Virus record (IMG/VR): IMGVR_UViG_643348544_000004
Source: a virus
Taxonomy: Duplodnaviria > Heunggongvirae > Uroviricota > Caudoviricetes
Direction: 5' to 3' (one strand)
DNA: 44,988 nt
The notes under the pieces were generated by a model that was given only the letters and a program-made list of their open reading frames with translations, searched no databases and was not told the DNA's origin. How positions within the stretch are numbered: the stretch's first letter is position 1; each line of letters starts with the position of its first letter. Positions 3,896-20,395 of the stretch are shown here, in pieces. The position numbers were made by a program, and so were the translations under genes.

Positions 3896-4084
3896 TTATC
3901 CAGCCGGTATTTCGTTATTCAGGTTCAGCGATACTTTTTTTAACGGGAGGCATTCACCGGGGATTTTTTGTTCGTCCCTTACCTGAATGCAGGATGACTT
4001 ACTGTCATAAATTCCGGTAATCACATTTTGTGGCTCACCCGTTATAAGAAAAACGGTCATCACCAGTGCAAATGCTGAAGTCAC
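3896..4084 (-). CDS. Hypothetical small protein (62 aa) with hydrophobic N-terminus
   Basis: ORF directly upstream of recE-like gene on same strand; stop overlaps start region of the next ORF (ATGA-type coupling); no recognisable family. Confidence 0.3.
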   Translation of the reverse strand: MTSAFALVMTVFLITGEPQNVITGIYDSKSSCIQVRDEQKIPGECLPLKKVSLNLNNEIPAG

Positions 4085-4269
4085 TGCTGTTCTCCGATAA
4101 TACCAAGTTCAAGAAGGGCAATTCTGGAAAGTATGGAATTATCATTGAGAAGATAAGGTTCATATTTTCTCATCTTAATGGCATCTTCCGTAAACTCCCG
4201 GTTACTGAGCAGAACACCAATATCAAAACAACCTTCAGACGTATTAACGTTTGGTAATAACGTTTCCAT
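4081..4269 (-). CDS. Hypothetical small protein (62 aa, start METLLPNVN...)
   Basis: Internal Met of the 97-aa frame chosen; translationally coupled to downstream small ORF; no recognisable family. Confidence 0.3.
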   Translation of the reverse strand: METLLPNVNTSEGCFDIGVLLSNREFTEDAIKMRKYEPYLLNDNSILSRIALLELGIIGEQQ

Positions 4270-4286
4270 TATCGCGTCCTCAACAA

Positions 4287-4434
4287 TGAATTTTGTGATG
4301 CGGTGCCTGGTGCCTCCAGGTGACGTTAACCAGTTAACAATTAACGCCGGATACAGAGAATCCACCCATAACACTGTTTTTGGTTTTAACTGTTCCGCGT
4401 GCGCTCAGCCGCATTCACCACATCACAAAATTCA
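4287..4434. repeat. Pair of perfect 14-bp inverted repeats (TGAATTTTGTGATG / CATCACAAAATTCA) flanking about 120 bp of palindrome-rich DNA
   Basis: Read directly: copy 1 at 4287-4300, reverse-complement copy at 4421-4434; interior contains CCTGGTGCCTCCAGG and GTTAACCAGTTAAC palindromes; sits in a roughly 570-bp stretch with no convincing ORF. Confidence 0.6.
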
Positions 4435-4836
4435 CTTTAAAAAGGGCGGCAGAGCAGTCACGGAGTAAAACTGATACCGCCAAACGTCACCAGAAAATTG
4501 ATAACAGAGGGCGTTGCAGCGGGGTTGTCACTTAAGCGTATGGTCAACCTGACAACCCGGTGTCCTCAACGGGGAAGGAATAACCCCGCCATACTTACCG
4601 CCGCGCCATTTCGCGGGTTGCCACAACCGGAAGCGCACGGTCGACGAAAATTTAACGACAGGCTATCTATGAACCAGCTACCTCGCCGTGCGCTTTCGCT
4701 TTATGCCCTGACTTTTCAGGGACATATCCTTTCAGTAAACTGTCAGTGCCGGATGTTCACCCGTGTCCGGCGCACGCACTCCACCTGACCCGTGGAGAAC
4801 TCCTTAATTACCAACCTTAGCTTCGTTGGTTAGCTA

Positions 4837-11791: not shown

Positions 11792-12295
11792 TTATTGATA
11801 GTGTTTTATGTTCAGATAATGCCCGATGACTTTGTCATGCAGCTCCACCGATTTTGAGAACGACAGCGACTTCCGTCCCAGCCGTGCCAGGTGCTGCCTC
11901 AGATTCAGGTTATGCCGCTCAATTCGCTGCGTATATCGCTTGCTGATTACGTGCAGCTTTCCCTTCAGGCGGGATTCATACAGCGGCCAGCCATCCGTCA
12001 TCCATATCACCACGTCAAAGGGTGACAGCAGGCTCATAAGACGCCCCAGCGTCGCCATCGTGCGTTCACCGAATACGTGCGCAACAACCGTCTTCCGGAG
12101 CCTGTCATACGCGTAAAACAGCCAGCGCTGGCGCGATTTAGCCCCGACATAGCCCCACTGTTCGTCCATTTCCGCGCAGACGATGACGTCACTGCCCGGC
12201 TGTATGCGCGAGGTTACCGACTGCGGCCTGAGTTTTTTAAGTGACGTAAAATCGTGTTGAGGCCAACGCCCATAATGCGGGCAGTTGCCCGGCAT
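11792..12295 (-). CDS. insB: IS1 InsB (transposase frame; expressed as InsAB' by -1 frameshift), 167 aa
   Basis: Canonical IS1 InsB sequence; overlaps insA 3' end. Confidence 0.9.
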
Positions 12296-12489
12296 CCAAC
12301 GCCATTCATGGCCATATCAATGATTTTCTGGTGCGTACCGGGTTGAGAAGCGGTGTAAGTGAACTGCAGTTGCCATGTTTTACGGCAGTGAGAGCAGAGA
12401 TAGCGCTGATGTCCGGCGGTGCTTTTGCCGTTACGCACCACCCCGTCAGTAGCTGAACAGGAGGGACAGCTGATAGAAACAGAAGCCAC
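12214..12489 (-). CDS. insA: IS1 InsA, 91 aa
   Basis: Sequence [43 protein letters not shown]... is canonical IS1 InsA. Confidence 0.9.
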
Positions 12490-12553: not shown

Positions 12554-12774
12554 GTTTTGATATTAATGTTTGGACATATAAATGCCCTTTTTTTAGGGGT
12601 GTTCATGGCGGTCATGTGCATTGAATACTGGCGGTAAATACAGCGAACGCCATTGGTTTAGTTGGATATTTACTGTGCCGGACAAAAACGGTTTGCGGGG
12701 AAATCTTAGTTAAGTAGAATAACTGCGGGTGCTTGAGGCTATCTGTCTCAGGCATGAACACCAAAAGGCAGATA

Positions 12775-12846
12775 GAGAAAAGCCCCAGTTAACATTACGC
12801 GTCCTGCAAGACGCTTAACATTAATCTGAGGCCATATCTATGCGAC
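12775..12846 (-). ncRNA. Predicted Sok-like antisense RNA of the hok locus
   Basis: Minus-strand promoter-like -35 TTGACC (12876-12881) and -10 TAATCT (12852-12857) with 18-nt spacer, directing transcription antisense to the hok leader; hairpin plus T-rich tract downstream; prediction only. Confidence 0.3.
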
Positions 12847-12899
12847 ACATAGAGATTAGCCTCTTACGGACCGAAAGGTCAAGGAGAAGCAGGCTATGA
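12840..12899 (+). CDS. Short mok-like leader ORF overlapping hok start (19 codons)
   Basis: ATG at 12840, stop TGA at 12897-12899 overlapping the hok ATG (ATGA); shorter than canonical mok. Confidence 0.25.
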   Translation: MRHIEISLLRTERSRRSRL

Positions 12900-13051
12900 A
12901 GCAGCAAAAGGCGATGTTAATCGCCCTGATCGTCATCTGTTTAACCGTCATAGTGACGGCACTGGTAACGAGGAAAGACCTCTGCGAGGTACGAATCCGA
13001 ACCGGCCAGACGGAGGTCGCTGTCTTCACAGCTTACGAACCTGAGGAGTAA
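12896..13051 (+). CDS. hokD: Hok-family type I toxin (HokD/RelF-like), 51 aa
   Basis: Manual translation MKQQKAMLIALIVICLTVIVTALVTRKDLCEVRIRTGQTEVAVFTAYEPEE matches remembered HokD; below track cutoff. Confidence 0.8.
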   Translation: MKQQKAMLIALIVICLTVIVTALVTRKDLCEVRIRTGQTEVAVFTAYEPEE

Positions 13052-13865: not shown

Positions 13866-14921
13866 GTGCGGGTATTACTTCGACCTGTTCTGGTACCGGA
13901 ACTCGGGCTGGTGATCGTTAAGCCGGGCCGTGAATCCATGCCGGTATTCCACAATACCCGGGTACTGGTGGAGCCGGAACCGAAAAGCATGCGTAATCTG
14001 CCGTCCGGGGTCGTTCCTGCCGTTCGCCAGCCGCTGGTGGAAGACAAAACATTGCTGCCGTTTTTCAGTAACGCACGGGTGATTCGTGCTGCTGGTGGTG
14101 CTGGTGCATTGTCTGACTGGCTGTTGCGCCATATTAAATCCTGCCAGTGGCCACACGGCGATTATCATCACAGCGAAACCGTCATTCACCGTTATGGTAC
14201 CGGCGCAATGGTGTTGTGCTGGCACTGCGACAACCAGCTGCGTGACCAGACATCCGAATCACTCGGGCAACTTGCTCACCAAAACCTGTCTGCATGGATG
14301 ATTGACGTCATACGCCATGCAATGAATGGCTCGCAGGAACGGGAATTATCGCTGGCTGAATTATCCTGGTGGGCGGTCCGCAATCAGGTGGCGGACGCGC
14401 TACCGGAAGCGGTATTACGTCGTTCGCTGGGGTTGCGTGCGGAAAAAATCCGCTCAATGTACCGTGAAAGCGACATCGTACCGGGAGAGCAGACCGCCAC
14501 CAGCATACTGAAGCAGCGCACAAAAAATCTTGCGCCGCTGCCTCACGCCCACCAGCAAAACCCGCCACAGGAAAAGACGGTGGTCAGCATTGCCGTTGAT
14601 CCGGAGTCACCGGCTCAGTATCTCCAGCGCCAGAAATCACAACGGGAAGAGATGCCTGTATACACGCGCTGGGTAAAAACGCAGAAATGCATGACGTGTG
14701 GCAATCAGGCAGATGATCCGCATCACATCATTGGTCATGGACTGGGAGGGATGGGAACAAAGGCTGATGATTTGTTTGTTATTCCGCTGTGCCGTAAATG
14801 CCATAGCGAACTACACGCCGGGGTAAAAGATTTTGAAGAAAAACACGGCAGCCAGCTGTTGTTGCTGATTCGTTTTTTAATGCACGCGAGAAATTCGGGT
14901 GTTCTGAAGTGGAAAGCATAA
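13866..14921 (+). CDS. DUF968-type protein with C-terminal HNH-like zinc motif (YdfU-like), 351 aa
   Basis: C-terminus CMTCGNQADDPHHIIGHGLGGMGTKADDLFVIPLCRKCHSELH resembles HNH/DUF968 proteins found before rusA/Q in Qin-type prophages; GTG start after GGAGG. Confidence 0.6.
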   Translation: MRVLLRPVLVPELGLVIVKPGRESMPVFHNTRVLVEPEPKSMRNLPSGVVPAVRQPLVEDKTLLPFFSNARVIRAAGGAGALSDWLLRHIKSCQWPHGDYHHSETVIHRYGTGAMVLCWHCDNQLRDQTSESLGQLAHQNLSAWMIDVIRHAMNGSQERELSLAELSWWAVRNQVADALPEAVLRRSLGLRAEKIRSMYRESDIVPGEQTATSILKQRTKNLAPLPHAHQQNPPQEKTVVSIAVDPESPAQYLQRQKSQREEMPVYTRWVKTQKCMTCGNQADDPHHIIGHGLGGMGTKADDLFVIPLCRKCHSELHAGVKDFEEKHGSQLLLLIRFLMHARNSGVLKWKA

Positions 14922-15302
14922 ATGACCGAGCGCATAGAATTTGTTTTACCTTACCCGCCGACGGTGAACACTTACTGGCGACGCCGTGGCAGCACATATT
15001 TTATCTCGGAGGAGGGAAAGCGTTATCGCCGGGCTGTGGCGCTTATTGTTCGCCAGCAGCGGCTGAAATTAAGCCTGTCCGGAAGGCTGGCGATAAAGGT
15101 GATTGCAGAGCCACCGGATAAGCGTCGTCGCGACCTGGACAATATCCTGAAAGCACCGCTGGATGCGCTGACGCATGCGGGAGTGTTAATGGACGATGAG
15201 CAGTTTGATGAAATCAATATCGTTCGTGGTCAGCCAGTATCTGGTGGACGTATGGGGGTGAAGATTTACCCCATAATGCTTGAAGGGCAGGTCAAAAAAT
15301 GA
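14922..15302 (+). CDS. rusA: RusA Holliday-junction resolvase, 126 aa
   Basis: Pattern ...LPYPPTVNTYW...DKRRRDLDNILKAPLDALTHAGVLMDDEQF matches RusA family from memory. Confidence 0.8.
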   Translation: MTERIEFVLPYPPTVNTYWRRRGSTYFISEEGKRYRRAVALIVRQQRLKLSLSGRLAIKVIAEPPDKRRRDLDNILKAPLDALTHAGVLMDDEQFDEINIVRGQPVSGGRMGVKIYPIMLEGQVKK

Positions 15303-16120
15303 AACTGGAAGATTTACCGAAATACTACTCCCCAAAATCCCCCGGCCTGACTGATGCATCGGCCTCAACGTCAAAAGATGCGCTGAGTATCACTGATGTG
15401 ATGGCCGCGCAGGGCATGACACAGAATCGGGCTGAGATGGGGTTTTCTGCGTTCCTGGGGAAAATGGGCATCAGTATGAATGACAGGGCGCGGGCAACAG
15501 AATTACTGGCAGATTATGCACTCAGTCGGTGCGATCGTGTGGCGGCGTTGAGAAAACTCCCGGCAGAAATAAAACCGGTAGTGATGCGCATTATGGCTTC
15601 GTACGCTTTTGAGGATTATGCCCGCAGCGCAGCGAGTAAAAAGCAGTGCCCTTGTTGCTATGGGGAAAAATTTATTGAAAGCGTAGTTTTTACAAACAAG
15701 GTCCAGTATCCGGATGGTAAGCCGCCGGTATGGGCAAAGTGTACGAAAGGTGTGTATCCGTCTTACTGGGAAGAATGGAAAAAAGTCAGGGAGGTGGTAA
15801 AAGTTGCCTGTCCGGAGTGTGGCGGAAAGGGTGAGGTTTCCACCGCCTGTAAGGATTGCCGTGGGCGTGGTGTCGCCATTCATCGTGAAGAGTCGGTAAA
15901 ACGTGGTATGCCTGTTATCAGAGATTGCCAGCGTTGTGGTGGTCGTGGCTGTGAAAGGCTGCCATCAACGGAGGCATTTAATGCCATATGCAAAGTGACG
16001 AGTGCTATCACGCTTGATACGTGGAAAAAATCAGTGAAACGCTTTTACGATACGTTGGTGGTTCGGTTTGACATTGAAGAGGCATGGGCGGAGCGGCAGT
16101 TAAAGAGGGTAACGCGATAG
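15299..16120 (+). CDS. Late-gene antiterminator Q (phage-82/Quu type), 273 aa
   Basis: Cys-rich zinc-binding region (CPCCYGEK, CPECGGKGE, CKDCRGRG, CQRCGGRG); position immediately upstream of a promoter/terminator pair and the lysis genes. Confidence 0.75.
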   Translation: MKLEDLPKYYSPKSPGLTDASASTSKDALSITDVMAAQGMTQNRAEMGFSAFLGKMGISMNDRARATELLADYALSRCDRVAALRKLPAEIKPVVMRIMASYAFEDYARSAASKKQCPCCYGEKFIESVVFTNKVQYPDGKPPVWAKCTKGVYPSYWEEWKKVREVVKVACPECGGKGEVSTACKDCRGRGVAIHREESVKRGMPVIRDCQRCGGRGCERLPSTEAFNAICKVTSAITLDTWKKSVKRFYDTLVVRFDIEEAWAERQLKRVTR

Positions 16121-16125
16121 TGTTG

Positions 16126-16153
16126 TTGATTTTTCCCGAATCTGTGGTAAATT
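16126..16153 (+). promoter_or_regulatory. Candidate late promoter (PR-prime-like): -35 TTGATT, 16-nt spacer, -10 TAAATT
   Basis: Read directly just downstream of Q stop; hexamers approximate sigma-70 consensus. Confidence 0.35.
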
Positions 16154-16202
16154 TGCTCTAACGATGGGCGTTTTATGCCTGACGTTAGAAGATTTTTTAC
16201 AC

Positions 16203-16226
16203 CCCGCCGCCTGGCGGGTTTTTTAT
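16203..16226 (+). terminator. Rho-independent terminator (tR-prime-like) about 50 nt downstream of candidate late promoter
   Basis: CCGCC-GCCT-GGCGG hairpin followed by TTTTTTA. Confidence 0.55.
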
Positions 16227-16346
16227 GACTGAAATCGCGTCAGTACAGTAAACGCGCTGGTGGCGGTGAATACCTGTCTTTCAGCTTGCTGGCTTTTTCG
16301 ACAAGAGTTATTGGTGTGTCACGTTAACCGGAAAAGGGAAAAAGAC

Positions 16347-16544
16347 ATGCTAAAACAGCAGGATATGACAGAAACCGCCAGAGTAGTGTTTAATGAATTA
16401 AGCGTTACCGAACCGGCGACAGTCGGGGAGATAGCGCAGAATACTTACCTTTCACGCGAACGCTGCCAGTTAATACTGACCCAGCTGGTTATGGCGGGTC
16501 TGGCAGACTATCAGTTCGGTTGTTACAGACGCCTTCCGCAGTGA
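16347..16544 (+). CDS. Small hypothetical protein, 65 aa, possible winged-helix fold
   Basis: Internal ATG with GGGAAAAAGAC upstream; followed by its own terminator. Confidence 0.35.
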   Translation: MLKQQDMTETARVVFNELSVTEPATVGEIAQNTYLSRERCQLILTQLVMAGLADYQFGCYRRLPQ

Positions 16545-16557
16545 AGGCTTTTTTATT
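16531..16557 (+). terminator. Rho-independent terminator overlapping stop of the 65-aa ORF (GCCTTC-loop-GAAGGC + T-run)
   Basis: Read directly. Confidence 0.45.
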
Positions 16558-16694
16558 TGTGGTAAATGGGCGGCTGGTGGGTGTTAGGGGCACCCACCAG
16601 CCATCTGCTCATGCGTTGGGTTCACAAGCAAACCTCAGGCCCACTGCTTTGCGCAAAAGCAGAATGAGCCTATCAGAGACAGGCTTAATGATCC

Positions 16695-17744
16695 ATGCTT
16701 AATACTGTAAAAATATCCAGTTGTGAGTTAATCAACGCCGACTGCCTGGAATTTATCCGGTCGTTACCCGAAAATTCTGTTGACCTGATAGTCACGGACC
16801 CGCCGTACTTTAAAGTGAAGCCTGAGGGCTGGGATAACCAGTGGAAGGGCGACGATGATTACCTGAAGTGGCTGGACCAGTGTCTGGCGCAGTTCTGGCG
16901 GGTGCTGAAACCTGCCGGAAGTCTTTACCTGTTCTGTGGTCATCGCCTGGCATCTGATATCGAAATCATGATGCGTGAACGCTTCAGTGTGCTGAACCAT
17001 ATTATCTGGGCGAAGCCGTCCGGACGCTGGAACGGATGCAACAAGGAAAGCCTGCGGGCGTATTTCCCCGCCACAGAGCGCATTCTGTTCGCGGAACATT
17101 ATCAGGGGCCGTATCGTCCGAAAGATGCCGGGTATGCGGCGAAGGGCAGTGCACTGAAACAGCATGTGATAGCCCCGCTGATTTCTTACTTTCGTGATGC
17201 GCGCGCGGCCCTGGGGATAACGGCAAAACAGATTGCAGATGCCACAGGAAAGAAAAACATGGTGTCGCACTGGTTCAGTGCCAGTCAGTGGCAGCTACCG
17301 AACGAAAGCGATTATCTGAAATTACAGTCGCTGTTTGCCCGGGTGGCAGAAGAGAAACATCAGCGCGGTGAACTGGAAAAGCCCCACCACCAGCTGGTGG
17401 ATACGTATACGTCACTGAACCGGCAGTATGTGGAGCTGCAGAGTGAATATAAGCATCTGCGGCGGTATTTTGGTGTGACGGCGCAGGTGCCGTACACGGA
17501 TGTGTGGACACATAAACCGGTGCAGTTCTATCCCGGGAAACATCCGTGCGAAAAACCGGCAGAAATGCTGCAGCAGATAATCAGCGCAAGCAGTCGTCCG
17601 GGTGACCTGGTTGCAGATTTTTTTATGGGCTCAGGTTCAACGGTAAAAGCTGCACTGGCGCTCGGGCGTCGTGCGATTGGCGTTGAACTGGAGACCGGAC
17701 GTTTTGAGCAGACAGTCAGGGAAGTTCAGGATTTAATCGTTTGA
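16695..17744 (+). CDS. Orphan DNA methyltransferase (N6-adenine/N4-cytosine class, DPPY motif), 349 aa
   Basis: VTDPPYF catalytic motif and FxGxG-type SAM motif (DFFMGSGST) read in translation; no adjacent restriction endonuclease gene. Confidence 0.8.
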   Translation: MLNTVKISSCELINADCLEFIRSLPENSVDLIVTDPPYFKVKPEGWDNQWKGDDDYLKWLDQCLAQFWRVLKPAGSLYLFCGHRLASDIEIMMRERFSVLNHIIWAKPSGRWNGCNKESLRAYFPATERILFAEHYQGPYRPKDAGYAAKGSALKQHVIAPLISYFRDARAALGITAKQIADATGKKNMVSHWFSASQWQLPNESDYLKLQSLFARVAEEKHQRGELEKPHHQLVDTYTSLNRQYVELQSEYKHLRRYFGVTAQVPYTDVWTHKPVQFYPGKHPCEKPAEMLQQIISASSRPGDLVADFFMGSGSTVKAALALGRRAIGVELETGRFEQTVREVQDLIV

Positions 17745-17793
17745 AACGGATGAGATTGCAGAATTAATTACGCACCATTATTATTCTGCTTCC

Positions 17794-17869
17794 GGCCCTT
17801 TAGCTCAGTGGTGAGAGCGAGCGACTCATAATCGCCAGGTCGCTGGTTCAAATCCAGCAAGGGCCACCA
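17794..17869 (+). tRNA. ileZ: tRNA with CAT anticodon, most likely tRNA-Ile2 (lysidine; ileX/ileZ-like)
   Basis: Cloverleaf folded by hand: acceptor GGCCCTT/AAGGGCC, anticodon loop CTCATAA, T-loop TTCAAAT, 3' CCA; close to remembered E. coli ileX. Confidence 0.75.
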
Positions 17870-17876
17870 TCACATA

Positions 17877-17953
17877 CCGCCATTAGCTCATCAGGAAAGA
17901 GCGCCAGCCTTCGAAGCTGGCTGCGCGGGGTTCAAGTCCCCGATGGCGGTCCA
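17877..17953 (+). tRNA. argN: tRNA-Arg (anticodon TCG)
   Basis: Acceptor CCGCCAT/ATGGCGG, anticodon loop CTTCGAA, T-arm GGGGTTCAAGTCCCC, 3' CCA; folded by hand. Confidence 0.65.
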
Positions 17954-17966
17954 TTATCTGCATCAT

Positions 17967-18043
17967 GCGTTGTTAGCTCAGCCGGACAGAGCAATTGCCT
18001 TCTAAGCAATCGGTCACTGGTTCGAATCCAGTACAACGCGCCA
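17967..18043 (+). tRNA. argO: tRNA-Arg (anticodon TCT)
   Basis: Acceptor GCGTTGT/ACAACGC, anticodon loop CTTCTAA, T-loop TTCGAAT, 3' CCA; folded by hand. Confidence 0.75.
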
Positions 18044-18532
18044 CACTTATTTTCCCTGGCTCGCTTTTGCGGGCCTTTTTTTTAAATGTCTCACAATTCA
18101 GACGGTTGACAGTTGTCTGTTTTGCGGGGAGTTTGTTAAAAGAAACTGGCATGGTGAATCCCCCTGTGCGGAGGGGCAATCAGCGAGTAGGTATATGGGA
18201 TAATCGCGGATTCAGGTGCTGGTACTGAATTCACCGGGAGGCACCCGGCACCATGCAATGGCACATAGCGCCACTCTCCAGCCCCTCTCCGGAGGGGCTT
18301 TCTTATGGACAAAAAAAGCCCGCGCTGGGAGACGCGGGCGGCAAGGAATAAACAATAAAACGTGAAGTAATATTTCAGCTGGCGAATAATACCCCATAGT
18401 AATCACTCTGCGCAACTGCGCGGTCTTTTTCGAATTGCGGGCTGTAGTCTCCCTTCTGCCATTGTCCTGTAACTTCCGGACTTCAGCCTGCTCCTTATCT
18501 GACTCACAACATTATCCCGCCCGGGAGGATTC

Positions 18533-20395
18533 ATGACATTTAAACACTACGATGTGGTCAGGGCGGTGTCGCCGTCAGACCTTGCTGATGCACTTGCTCA
18601 AAAAATTCGTGAAGGATGGCAACCATACGGCGGGCCGTTTTCTTCGTATACGGATGATGGCGCAGCACTTATTCAGGCGATTGTCGCAGAAGGTGATGTG
18701 GTCGTCAGTGGTGCAACTGAGCCGGAGTGGTACTACGTCATCGTACTGGCCGGGCAGTCTAATGCCATGGCTTACGGTGAAGGGCTTCCGCTTCCGGATT
18801 CATACGATGCGCCCCATCCGCGCATTAAGCAACTGGCCCGTCGTAACACAGTGACTCCCGGTGGTGAAGTATGCGTATTTAACGACATCATTCCTGCTGA
18901 CCATTGTCTGCATGATGTTCAGGATATGAGTACGATTAACCATCCCCGGGCTGACCTGAGCAAAGGGCAGTACGGCTGTGTCGGACAGGGCTTACATATT
19001 GCCAAAAAACTGCTTCCGTATATCCCTAATAATGCGGGGATCCTGCTGGTACCATGCTGTCGTGGTGGTTCGGCATTCACCCAGGGCACGGAGGGGACAT
19101 TCAGCGAGTCCACGGGGGCCAGTCAGGATTCGGCTCGCTGGGGAGTGGGTAAGCCGTTATATCAGGATCTGCTTTTCCGCACGAAGGCAGCATTGCAGAA
19201 AAACCCGAAAAACGTTTTGCTGGCGATATGCTGGATGCAGGGGGAATTCGATATGAAGAATGCCAGTTACGCCCAGCAGCCAGCAGCATTTCTTGCAATG
19301 GTACAGCAGTTCCGTGCTGACCTTGCCGGGCTGGCGGCGCAGTGTCACGGTGGAAGTCCGGCATCAGTCCCCTGGATTTGTGGCGACACGACATACGCGT
19401 GGAAACAAGAACACGGTACACAATATGAAGTGGTATATGGTGCATATAAAGGTAAAGAATCCCAGCAGATTTATTTTGTTCCCTTTATGACCGATGGTAG
19501 CGGAGTTAATACACCGACAAACAACCCGTCAGAAGATCCTGATATTGCCGGGTCTGGTTATTACGGTTCGGCATCCCGAACGAACAAAAACTGGGTATCA
19601 TCAAATCGCCCGACGCATTTCAGCTCATGGGCGCGTCGTGGCATTATTCCCGATCGTATGGCAACTGCTATTCTGAACGTAGCCGGTCGCACCTTAGCCT
19701 TCATTAGTGGTAAGGCACCGGAAATCAAACCCTCGCCCGGCGGCGACACGCCATCGGGGCCGTCTGAAGATGCATCCGTACGCACAATCTCCCTGTTGCC
19801 GACAGCCGGAGATGCTGCTGCGCAGGGCTGGAGCATTAAGAATGGCGGAATTCAGTTGTCAGATGGTGTATTTAAGATCACCAAGCAGAGCAATAAAGCC
19901 TGGTCCCTGACGCGCCCGGTGGATGACGCAGTCTCCCTGCTGACACGGGGTGGCAGACTGAGCTGTAAGTTTCGACTGTCAGGCGCACTGACCAACAACC
20001 AGTTCGGTCTGGGAATTTATCTGTATACCGATGTAGCGTTACCTGACGTCGTGGCGATGACCGGGACTGGTAACCCGTTCCTGATGTCGTTCTTCACCCA
20101 GACCACAGACGGCAAACTGAATCTGATGCATCACAAGAAAGCAGGAAACACAAAGTTGGGCGAGTTCGGGAATTACAGTAACGACTGGCAGACGCTGGAG
20201 CTGGTGTTCACCGCCGGCAGTGCCACGGTTACTCCGAAACTGAATGGAGTGGCTGGCCCGGCATTCCAGGTCATAAAAGACAGTCTGACAGTGGGACTAA
20301 ATGCACTGACGCTGACGGATATTACCAAAAATGCAACGTATGGCGTTGAGATAGAAAGTCTGGTGCTGGAGATAAATGCACCGGCATCATCATAA
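18533..20395 (+). CDS. Prophage NanS-p-like sialate O-acetylesterase (N-terminal DUF1737-like + SGNH/SASA esterase + C-terminal domain), 620 aa
   Basis: GQSNAMAYG motif typical of sialate O-acetylesterases; position between tRNAs and holin as in Stx-type lambdoid phages. Confidence 0.7.

Follow-up and report, generated by a model that had tools for sequence, protein, structure and literature searches.

An intact M.EcoGI/M.EcoGII-family adenine methyltransferase behind the late antiterminator of a lambda-like prophage, and its structured leader as a candidate cis-regulatory RNA

What does a prophage gain from a DNA methyltransferase that has no restriction partner, and how could its host tolerate such an enzyme? 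The question is raised by the IMG/VR virus record IMGVR_UViG_643348544_000004 (Duplodnaviria; Heunggongvirae; Uroviricota; Caudoviricetes), a stretch of 44,988 nucleotides that was analyzed as a whole and is referred to here as the window. An earlier note, made from the letters of this DNA without database searches, had drawn attention to an orphan amino-methyltransferase of 349 amino acids lying between the antiterminator gene Q and a block of tRNA genes, had likened it to enzymes of relaxed or non-specific adenine specificity, and had suggested that it could broadly protect phage DNA from restriction. The gene is intact and, judged by its sequence, belongs to the M.EcoGI/M.EcoGII family. It is thus of an already known and very common kind, of which M.EcoGII is sold as a reagent, and the part of the locus that may be new is the apparently undescribed structured leader directly upstream of it. 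The gene at the center of the analysis is the following:

16695..17744, + strand: orphan beta-class N6-adenine DNA methyltransferase of the M.EcoGI/M.EcoGII family (Pfam, PADLOC, PHROG and PDB matches, alignments)

The open reading frame (ORF) listing of the window contains this same frame, running full length from ATG to stop, opening with MLNTVKISSCEL and with all motifs intact. The Pfam family PF01555 (N6_N4_Mtase) matches residues 29–340 with E = 2.4e-44 and 152 bits, so far over the cut-off of 26.7 that a chance reading frame can be set aside; the Type II methyltransferase model of PADLOC covers the protein end to end (E = 4e-167), and ‘DNA methyltransferase’ families of PHROGs match it at E of about 1e-104. 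The catalytic DPPY motif occupies residues 35–38 and the S-adenosylmethionine (SAM)-binding FMGSG residues 310–314, and this order, catalytic motif first and SAM-binding motif last, is by sequence that of the beta class. The best relatives in the PDB are likewise beta-class amino-methyltransferases, including the adenine enzymes M.RsrI, CcrM, M.MboIIA and DpnA as well as N4-cytosine enzymes such as M.PvuII; they align in two blocks (residues 8–114 and 281–340) and leave the middle of the protein without a match. The central recognition region contains a charged linker (ARVAEEKHQRGELEKPHHQLV...) which aligns gap-free to M.EcoGII and to reconstructed ancestors of that family.

M.EcoGII, a beta-class enzyme of 349 amino acids borne by a prophage of Escherichia coli O104:H4 C227-11, methylates adenine in any context in double-stranded DNA, single-stranded DNA, RNA and DNA:RNA hybrids, and in vitro modifies up to 99% of deoxyadenosines, blocking many restriction enzymes (Murray et al., 2018, PMC5778455). 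The enzyme is silent in the lysogen and deleterious when constitutively expressed; its paralog M.EcoGI, identical at 333 of 349 residues, is likewise non-specific, both reside unexpressed in a ‘cryptic’ prophage, and the same authors describe ‘a very large family’ in E. coli prophages and ‘a very similar MTase’ in phage 1720a-02 (PMC5778455). Homologs with 92–94% amino-acid similarity from O111 Shiga toxin-producing E. coli have been listed as ‘nonspecific’ by homology and are inactive in lysogens (Forde et al., PMC6602927).

The window protein has the same length as M.EcoGII and is identical to it at 330 of 348 aligned residues (94.8%), an approximate figure given that the reference was a machine-read table with visible errors in the supplement of the SUPREM paper (PMC11551740). 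Three or more of the mismatches seem to be misreadings that turn up throughout the rows of that table (NHHIWA for NHIIWA, with HH in place of HI, and GRRRAIG for GRRAIG, with RRR in place of RR), and one residue is lost from the printed sequence; the real identity is probably 95–96%. About 17 real differences are left, all but one of them within residues 148–278, the target-recognition and linker region. A tblastn search of the printed M.EcoGII against 50,697 phage records gave no match above 93.7%. The enzyme of phage 1720a-02, the top phage match for the window (94.7% nucleotide identity), is 94.8% identical at the protein level; closer still are WP_000935516.1 of E. coli NCTC86 (99.7%) and the gene of Escherichia albertii NBRC 107761 (100%). 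At the DNA level, 1977 of 5426 complete E. coli genomes carry relatives, some of them in as many as six copies, and alleles of at least 99% identity are present in 594 records.

The E. albertii contig (NZ_BBMY01000139.1) is 100% identical over both the gene and the 150-nt leader upstream of it, while the best complete E. coli genomes among the matches listed differ by a single mismatch within the gene. E. albertii may be the source of the window, or these identities may reflect a prophage shared very recently.

Two other groups of orphan enzymes do not take in the window protein. The CcrM family (NCBIfam NF050803) reaches 72.3 bits against a cut-off of 830, and only over the C-terminal SAM-binding block, and the YhdJ-type family (NCBIfam NF008572, PRK11524) reaches 112.8 bits against a cut-off of 292. 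We strongly infer that the window allele methylates adenine without site specificity, since its divergence from M.EcoGII equals that between M.EcoGI and M.EcoGII, since two reconstructed ancestors, Anc291 (84% identical to the window protein) and SUPREM (71%), stay non-site-specific when assayed on RNA (PMC11551740), and since M.PflMI, the nearest enzyme with a defined site, shares only 27% identity with M.EcoGII and is without the charged linker, a feature that the SUPREM authors tied to non-specific binding (PMC11551740). The class named in the earlier note is supported by the equal length and 94.8% identity to an enzyme of that very kind.

The same note had stated that no restriction endonuclease neighbors the gene, and this holds: the neighbors are Q, an ORF of 65 amino acids and the tRNA genes, PADLOC matches only methyltransferase models, and a pairing as a Type II restriction-modification system with an adjoining endonuclease was not seen. 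Nor did Pfam, PADLOC or PHROGs, each run on part of a set of some 36 ORFs from all over the window, reveal a restriction endonuclease; outside that set stand about 18 further ORFs of at least 75 amino acids, mostly late structural genes and about a third of the ORFs of that size. As to a narrow specificity with a cognate endonuclease elsewhere in the prophage, no evidence for it appeared, neither in the family comparisons nor among the scanned ORFs. Three genes upstream of the methyltransferase (13866–14921, + strand) is the gene of a DUF968 protein whose C-terminal domain is HNH-like (phrog_96 ‘HNH endonuclease’). It was considered as a hidden partner nuclease; PADLOC gave no match to it, and we tentatively read it as a nin-region protein rather than a restriction enzyme. 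The SfV record likewise annotates an HNH endonuclease just before Q.

If the enzyme is non-specific and toxic, the surroundings of the gene suggest how its expression could be confined. The features of the region are, in order:

15299..16120, + strand: late-gene antiterminator Q, 273 amino acids (Pfam PF03589 Antiterm, E = 3.9e-51; the NCTC86 homolog is called ‘antitermination protein’ by the Prokaryotic Genome Annotation Pipeline, PGAP)
16126..16153, + strand: putative PR' promoter (TTGATT, 16-nt spacer, TGgTAAATT), read by eye directly after the Q stop codon
16203..16224, + strand: putative tR' terminator (CCCGCC GCCT GGCGGG followed by TTTTTT) from the terminator scan (-12.6 kcal/mol, z = -2.7)
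16347..16544, + strand: small conserved ORF, 65 amino acids (phrog_331, a family without assigned function, E = 1.4e-37)
16531..16554, + strand: second terminator-like hairpin (16531–16548) with six T, overlapping the stop codon of the small ORF (-8.9 kcal/mol, z = -2.0)
16558–16567: possible promoter, TGTGGTAAAT
16562..16694, + strand: conserved structured leader of about 133 nt, candidate cis-regulatory RNA (fold, conservation, compensatory changes)
17794–17869, 17877–17953 and 17967–18043, + strand: three phage tRNA genes (CAT, Arg-TCG, Arg-TCT), the ileZ/argN/argO block of Shiga toxin (Stx)-type phages (ARAGORN, Rfam)
18058..18083, + strand: terminator-like hairpin with T-run after the tRNA block (-13.8 kcal/mol, z = -3.6)

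The methyltransferase gene thus lies where it had been placed before, with Q upstream and the three tRNA genes downstream. In Stx phages PR' is constitutive, tR' stops its transcription in lysogeny, and Q allows read-through after induction (PMC7547250); the position of the putative PR' and tR' directly after Q in the window matches that layout. The tR' hairpin and its T-run are kept in phages 1720a-02 and phiP27 with a different loop, the stem of the second hairpin is kept in 1720a-02, again with a different loop, and in the SfV record a ‘putative rho-independent terminator’ is placed, by annotation, in the interval from Q to the small ORF. Homology to phages with other Q alleles (1720a-02, phiP27 and many Stx2a phages) begins at window position 16203–16204, that is, at the tR' hairpin, which indicates a single cassette, made up of tR', the small ORF, the leader, the methyltransferase and the tRNAs, that moves as a block, with the promoter and the Q-utilization region going with Q. 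The Q alleles that precede the cassette differ among the Stx2 phages and phiP27. The genomes of SfV, mEp460, Eeyore and a Morganella phage have the small ORF and the methyltransferase between Q and the holin gene, directly before the lysis genes, and in every phage compared the methyltransferase is the first large late gene.

The first of the tRNA genes (17794–17869, + strand) is called Met by ARAGORN from its anticodon CAT, and tRNA-Ile (ileZ) by PGAP in NCTC86 and in the phiP27 record. It is probably an Ile2 tRNA read via lysidine modification.

Taken together, these observations point to the following scenario. As the first sizeable gene of the late operon, behind Q, a putative PR' and two intrinsic terminators, the methyltransferase would be silent in the lysogen and transcribed only once Q has made RNA polymerase terminator-resistant after induction; lytic, Q-dependent expression is likely from the position of the gene beyond the two intrinsic terminators that follow Q, and it fits the silence and toxicity published for M.EcoGII. 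Most adenines of the replicating phage DNA would then be methylated before packaging, so that the DNA of the progeny, on entering a new host, would resist the many restriction systems of Types I, II and III that have adenine in their sites. The anti-restriction reasoning is shared by Murray et al. (PMC5778455) and by a review in EcoSal Plus (PMC12707154). We consider this explanation as a whole, from the non-specific enzyme through Q-dependent late expression to the anti-restriction benefit, to be quite probable.

Several points weigh against it and should temper the interpretation. The substitutions that set the window allele apart from M.EcoGII cluster at residues 148–278, which is where a changed specificity would arise. 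The argument for Q dependence is one of gene position, and the putative PR' scores 8/12 and was not flagged by the consensus scan; a promoter scan of 15900–18700 returned no sigma-70 site on the + strand. For this allele we infer activity, specificity and expression, together with Q dependence and the anti-restriction benefit, from sequence and gene order. The prophage carries an IS1 in its early region and may therefore be defective, with the gene perhaps never used. Finally, the SUPREM authors state of M.EcoGII that its ‘precise biological function ... is unknown’ (PMC11551740), and protection of phage DNA in vivo is itself a deduction.

This last point gives some room to the alternative that survives best, namely a non-specific enzyme selected for something other than anti-restriction, such as RNA methylation, disturbance of host replication, repair or transcription, or a mark for packaging or timing. 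M.EcoGII does methylate RNA and DNA:RNA hybrids in vitro (PMC5778455), but its activity on DNA exceeds that on RNA, and by the argument of the SUPREM authors its native activity is the methylation of DNA (PMC11551740). Tight linkage of the gene to tRNA genes is seen in Stx-type phages; however, the cassettes of SfV, mEp460, Eeyore and the Morganella phage adjoin lysis genes with no tRNA annotated beside them, so that the tRNA linkage is not general. Heavy N6-methyladenine would also expose a phage to methyladenine-dependent Type IV nucleases, whereas DNA methylated by M.EcoGII resists many restriction enzymes (PMC5778455). On balance we regard a different selected role as improbable.

Small changes in the recognition region of other methyltransferases can alter their specificity. 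The window protein might accordingly be a sequence-specific orphan with a defined motif, protecting against particular systems or acting in epigenetic regulation, and the concentration of its differences in residues 148–278 is what such an enzyme would be expected to display. Yet M.EcoGI differs from M.EcoGII about equally and is still non-specific, ancestors 71–84% identical to the window protein are non-site-specific on RNA, the linker tied to non-specific binding is present, and the nearest named site-specific relative is as distant as stated above; a defined motif is thus very unlikely. Very unlikely, too, is the view that the gene is a passenger in a decaying prophage, intact by recency, never expressed and without current function, as the IS1 insertion and the unexpressed M.EcoGI and M.EcoGII in their ‘cryptic’ prophage (PMC5778455) might suggest, given the full-length frame with intact motifs, the extent of the window from integrase to tail fiber with complete-looking lysis and morphogenesis modules, the alleles of at least 99% identity in 594 records, and a non-coding leader conserved across several families of the Enterobacterales, which argues for selection on the cassette.

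A non-specific enzyme expressed late for anti-restriction, the reading we prefer, would still have to be carried safely, and two conserved elements directly upstream of the gene could bear on its control. The first is the small ORF, which had been described as a small HTH-like (helix-turn-helix) gene with its own terminator. Both the gene (phrog_331) and a hairpin with six T are indeed there, while the HTH label is weakly supported: the match to the Pfam family TrmB (E = 0.0065, 16.7 bits) stays under the cut-off of 25.6, a single-sequence AlphaFold model gives three helices at a pLDDT (predicted local distance difference test) of 53, and a sequence search of the PDB found no relative. The RefSeq name of the phiP27 homolog is ‘TrmB family transcriptional regulator’. 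Within the window the ORF is contained in a mechanical ORF of 94 amino acids starting at GTG 16260. Homologs precede the methyltransferase in phiP27, SfV, mEp460 and the Morganella phage, with identities of 100, 95, 53 and 44% (the last in the Morganella phage), around an invariant core RCQL.LTQ...AGL. The product may be a winged-helix or HTH protein, and it may, by analogy with the controller proteins of restriction-modification systems, control the methyltransferase.

The second element is the leader, which is better conserved than the small ORF next to it: in the Morganella phage, where the small ORF product is only 44% identical, the 150-nt stretch that separates this ORF from the methyltransferase is nearly unchanged. 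The 167-nt stretch 16549–16715, which includes the leader, folds at -65.2 kcal/mol (z = -4.05). A core motif of the leader (AATGGGCGGCTGGNGGGTGTT) was found in at least 120 IMG/VR stretches, and among the fetched loci a DPPY-bearing ORF, mostly of 348–353 amino acids, begins 129–131 nt after the motif in 120 of 129 occurrences. Starting from the protein, with one genome per species, a full-length leader precedes the methyltransferase homolog in 42 of 80 loci. The genera represented include Mixta, Kosakonia, Trabulsiella, Enterobacter, Klebsiella, Buttiauxella, Citrobacter, Salmonella, Rosenbergiella, Providencia and Morganella, so that the leader spans the Enterobacteriaceae, Erwiniaceae and Morganellaceae; Xenorhabdus and Photorhabdus retain mainly its first hairpin. 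Searches of Rfam at gathering and at permissive thresholds (E up to 5) assigned the leader to no family, including no known SAM or S-adenosylhomocysteine riboswitch.

Could the conservation be that of a peptide? The ATG at 16566 opens a frame (MGGWWVL...) which stops after 7 codons in many relatives, after 16 in the Morganella phage and after 33 here (alignments read by eye), and a conserved leader peptide was rejected; a role for a short leader ORF at this ATG is possible.

To describe the pairings, two alignments of leaders from loci L004–L207 were used, one of 52 distinct leaders (A4) and one that is diverse in species (A5). The first hairpin, P1, is long and conserved (window 16572–16602); the Providencia leaders (L199, L204) seem, from their rows read by eye, to keep it by compensating substitutions, with AU in 2 of 45 sequences at pair 12–43. 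Downstream of it, pairing B joins columns 46–53 of A4 with 63–70. Its pair 46–70 is UA in 25 of the 52 leaders, AU in 13, CG in 12 and UG in one, with one non-pair, and in A5 it is CG (22), AU (8), UA (6) or UG (4), with four non-pairs; the Morganellaceae sequences of A5 show compensation at three further pairs. Pairing A joins columns 59–63 of A4 with 132–136 and 66–69 with 125–128, and it takes in the invariant GATC together with the base that precedes the AUG (GATCC stands directly 5' of the AUG in the window). Pair 59–136 is AU in 20 leaders of A4, GC in 13 and GU in 10, with nine non-pairs, and pairs 66–128, 67–127 and 68–126 are compensated in divergent sequences. The two pairings are mutually exclusive, as the segment 59–69 can pair either with the start-proximal strand 125–136 or with the upstream strand 46–53. 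In both alignments none of 500 shuffles reached the observed covariation score or the count of doubly changed cells, and sliding the partner strand by 1–3 columns lets the pairing fall to about half or worse, bearing in mind that both controls leave shared ancestry in.

The two-pairing structure is a good candidate, going by these alignments, and most relatives of the methyltransferase are without an obvious Shine-Dalgarno sequence. We propose, tentatively and as the less probable outcome, that the leader is an undescribed cis-regulatory RNA which gates translation of the toxic methyltransferase, and which would thereby add post-transcriptional control to the Q-dependent transcription outlined above. 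Were this so, the switch would explain how a cell stays unmethylated despite transcription that crosses the gene, for example towards the tRNA genes, and control by RNA would explain the safe carriage of a dangerous enzyme and give experimental access to the timing and purpose of its use by the phage. The methyltransferase gene itself adds little in comparison, M.EcoGII being characterized, commercially available and widely used for chromatin footprinting.

The arms of P1 coincide with Chi sites (GCTGGTGG, at 16573 on the + strand and 16594 on the - strand), and we considered whether the hairpin is kept mainly for that reason; this was rejected, as the Providencia leaders lose Chi yet appear to keep the hairpin. 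The window as a whole has 16 Chi sites against 2.2 expected from shuffles (largest value 8), nine of which fall, in both orientations, within 3.4 kb around Q and the methyltransferase (14033–17400), with an overlapping pair inside the methyltransferase gene (17387 on the - strand, 17393 on the + strand). E. coli DNA is itself rich in Chi, and the excess over the host background is modest.

The remainder of the window is that of a lambda-like prophage, reaching from an integrase gene (1–1020, - strand) to the tail fiber gene. Its early part is ordered as integrase, DicB and DicF, a CI-like repressor, replication genes, IS1, hok/sok, the DUF968/HNH protein, RusA and Q; its late part continues with the methyltransferase cassette, the tRNAs, a NanS-p-like esterase, holin, lysozyme and Rz, followed by the structural genes for terminase gpA, a lambda-type portal, a protease-capsid fusion, tape measure, gpJ and the tail fiber. 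The earlier note had assigned the locus to an Stx-type setting, which is right for the layout of the late region and does not extend to the toxin, as no stx genes were found in the prophage. The gap of about 490 bp between the tRNAs and the esterase (18044–18532, + strand) stands where Stx phages carry stxAB; it holds terminator-like hairpins and a full-length match to the STnc100 small RNA family (18120–18310, + strand, 139 bits against a cut-off of 47). The esterase gene (18533–20395, + strand) encodes 620 amino acids with DUF1737, a SASA sialate O-acetylesterase domain and DUF6645, and esterases of the NanS-p type are typical downstream of stx in Stx phages. In the early region, the IS1 transposase ORFs lie in the nin region at 11792–12489 on the - strand (PF03400, E = 2.3e-78), the upstream ORF 12214–12489 being read as InsA-like. 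A hok/sok-type locus (12727–13051, + strand) consists of a sok RNA (12727–12898, 107 bits) and an ORF of 51 amino acids (12896–13051), Hok-like by sequence and position. The DicF small RNA (4444–4495) and DicB (4081–4374) belong to a - strand region at 4081–4495.

How does this locus compare with systems already described? M.PflMI (CCANNNNNTGG), the closest site-specific relative according to the SUPREM authors (PMC11551740), has the beta-class fold and a similar predicted recognition domain, but at 27% identity to M.EcoGII, without the highly charged linker and as part of a restriction-modification pair it represents a group outside which the window protein falls. The chromosomal orphans CcrM (GANTC) and YhdJ have the Pfam family, the beta-class motifs and partial matches in common with it, whereas the scores are far under the family cut-offs and the central region is unrelated, so that it is not a member. 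The Mom system of phage Mu is a functional analog whose regulation is different, involving Dam, OxyR and Com. Like the M.EcoGII-type enzymes, beside which it has been cited (PMC12707154), Mom is a broad modifier of phage DNA, silent in the lysogen and toxic, though in chemistry and fold it is unrelated. A far closer likeness is seen in phage 1720a-02 and the Stx2a, Stx2c, Stx2d and Stx2e phages (e.g., phiP27 L24 and Stx2a_1447), where the terminator, the 65-amino-acid ORF, the leader, the methyltransferase and the tRNAs follow Q as they do here; their Q alleles differ, homology starting at the putative tR' hairpin, and in the Stx phages stxAB comes after the tRNAs, where the window has the STnc100 match and the esterase gene. 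Closest of all are M.EcoGII and M.EcoGI themselves, with 349 amino acids, about 95% identity, the same succession of DPPY, central region with charged linker and FxGxG, a prophage as carrier and no partner endonuclease; from these the window allele is set apart by about 17 substitutions, nearly all within residues 148–278, and by its residence in an stx-negative, lambda-like prophage.

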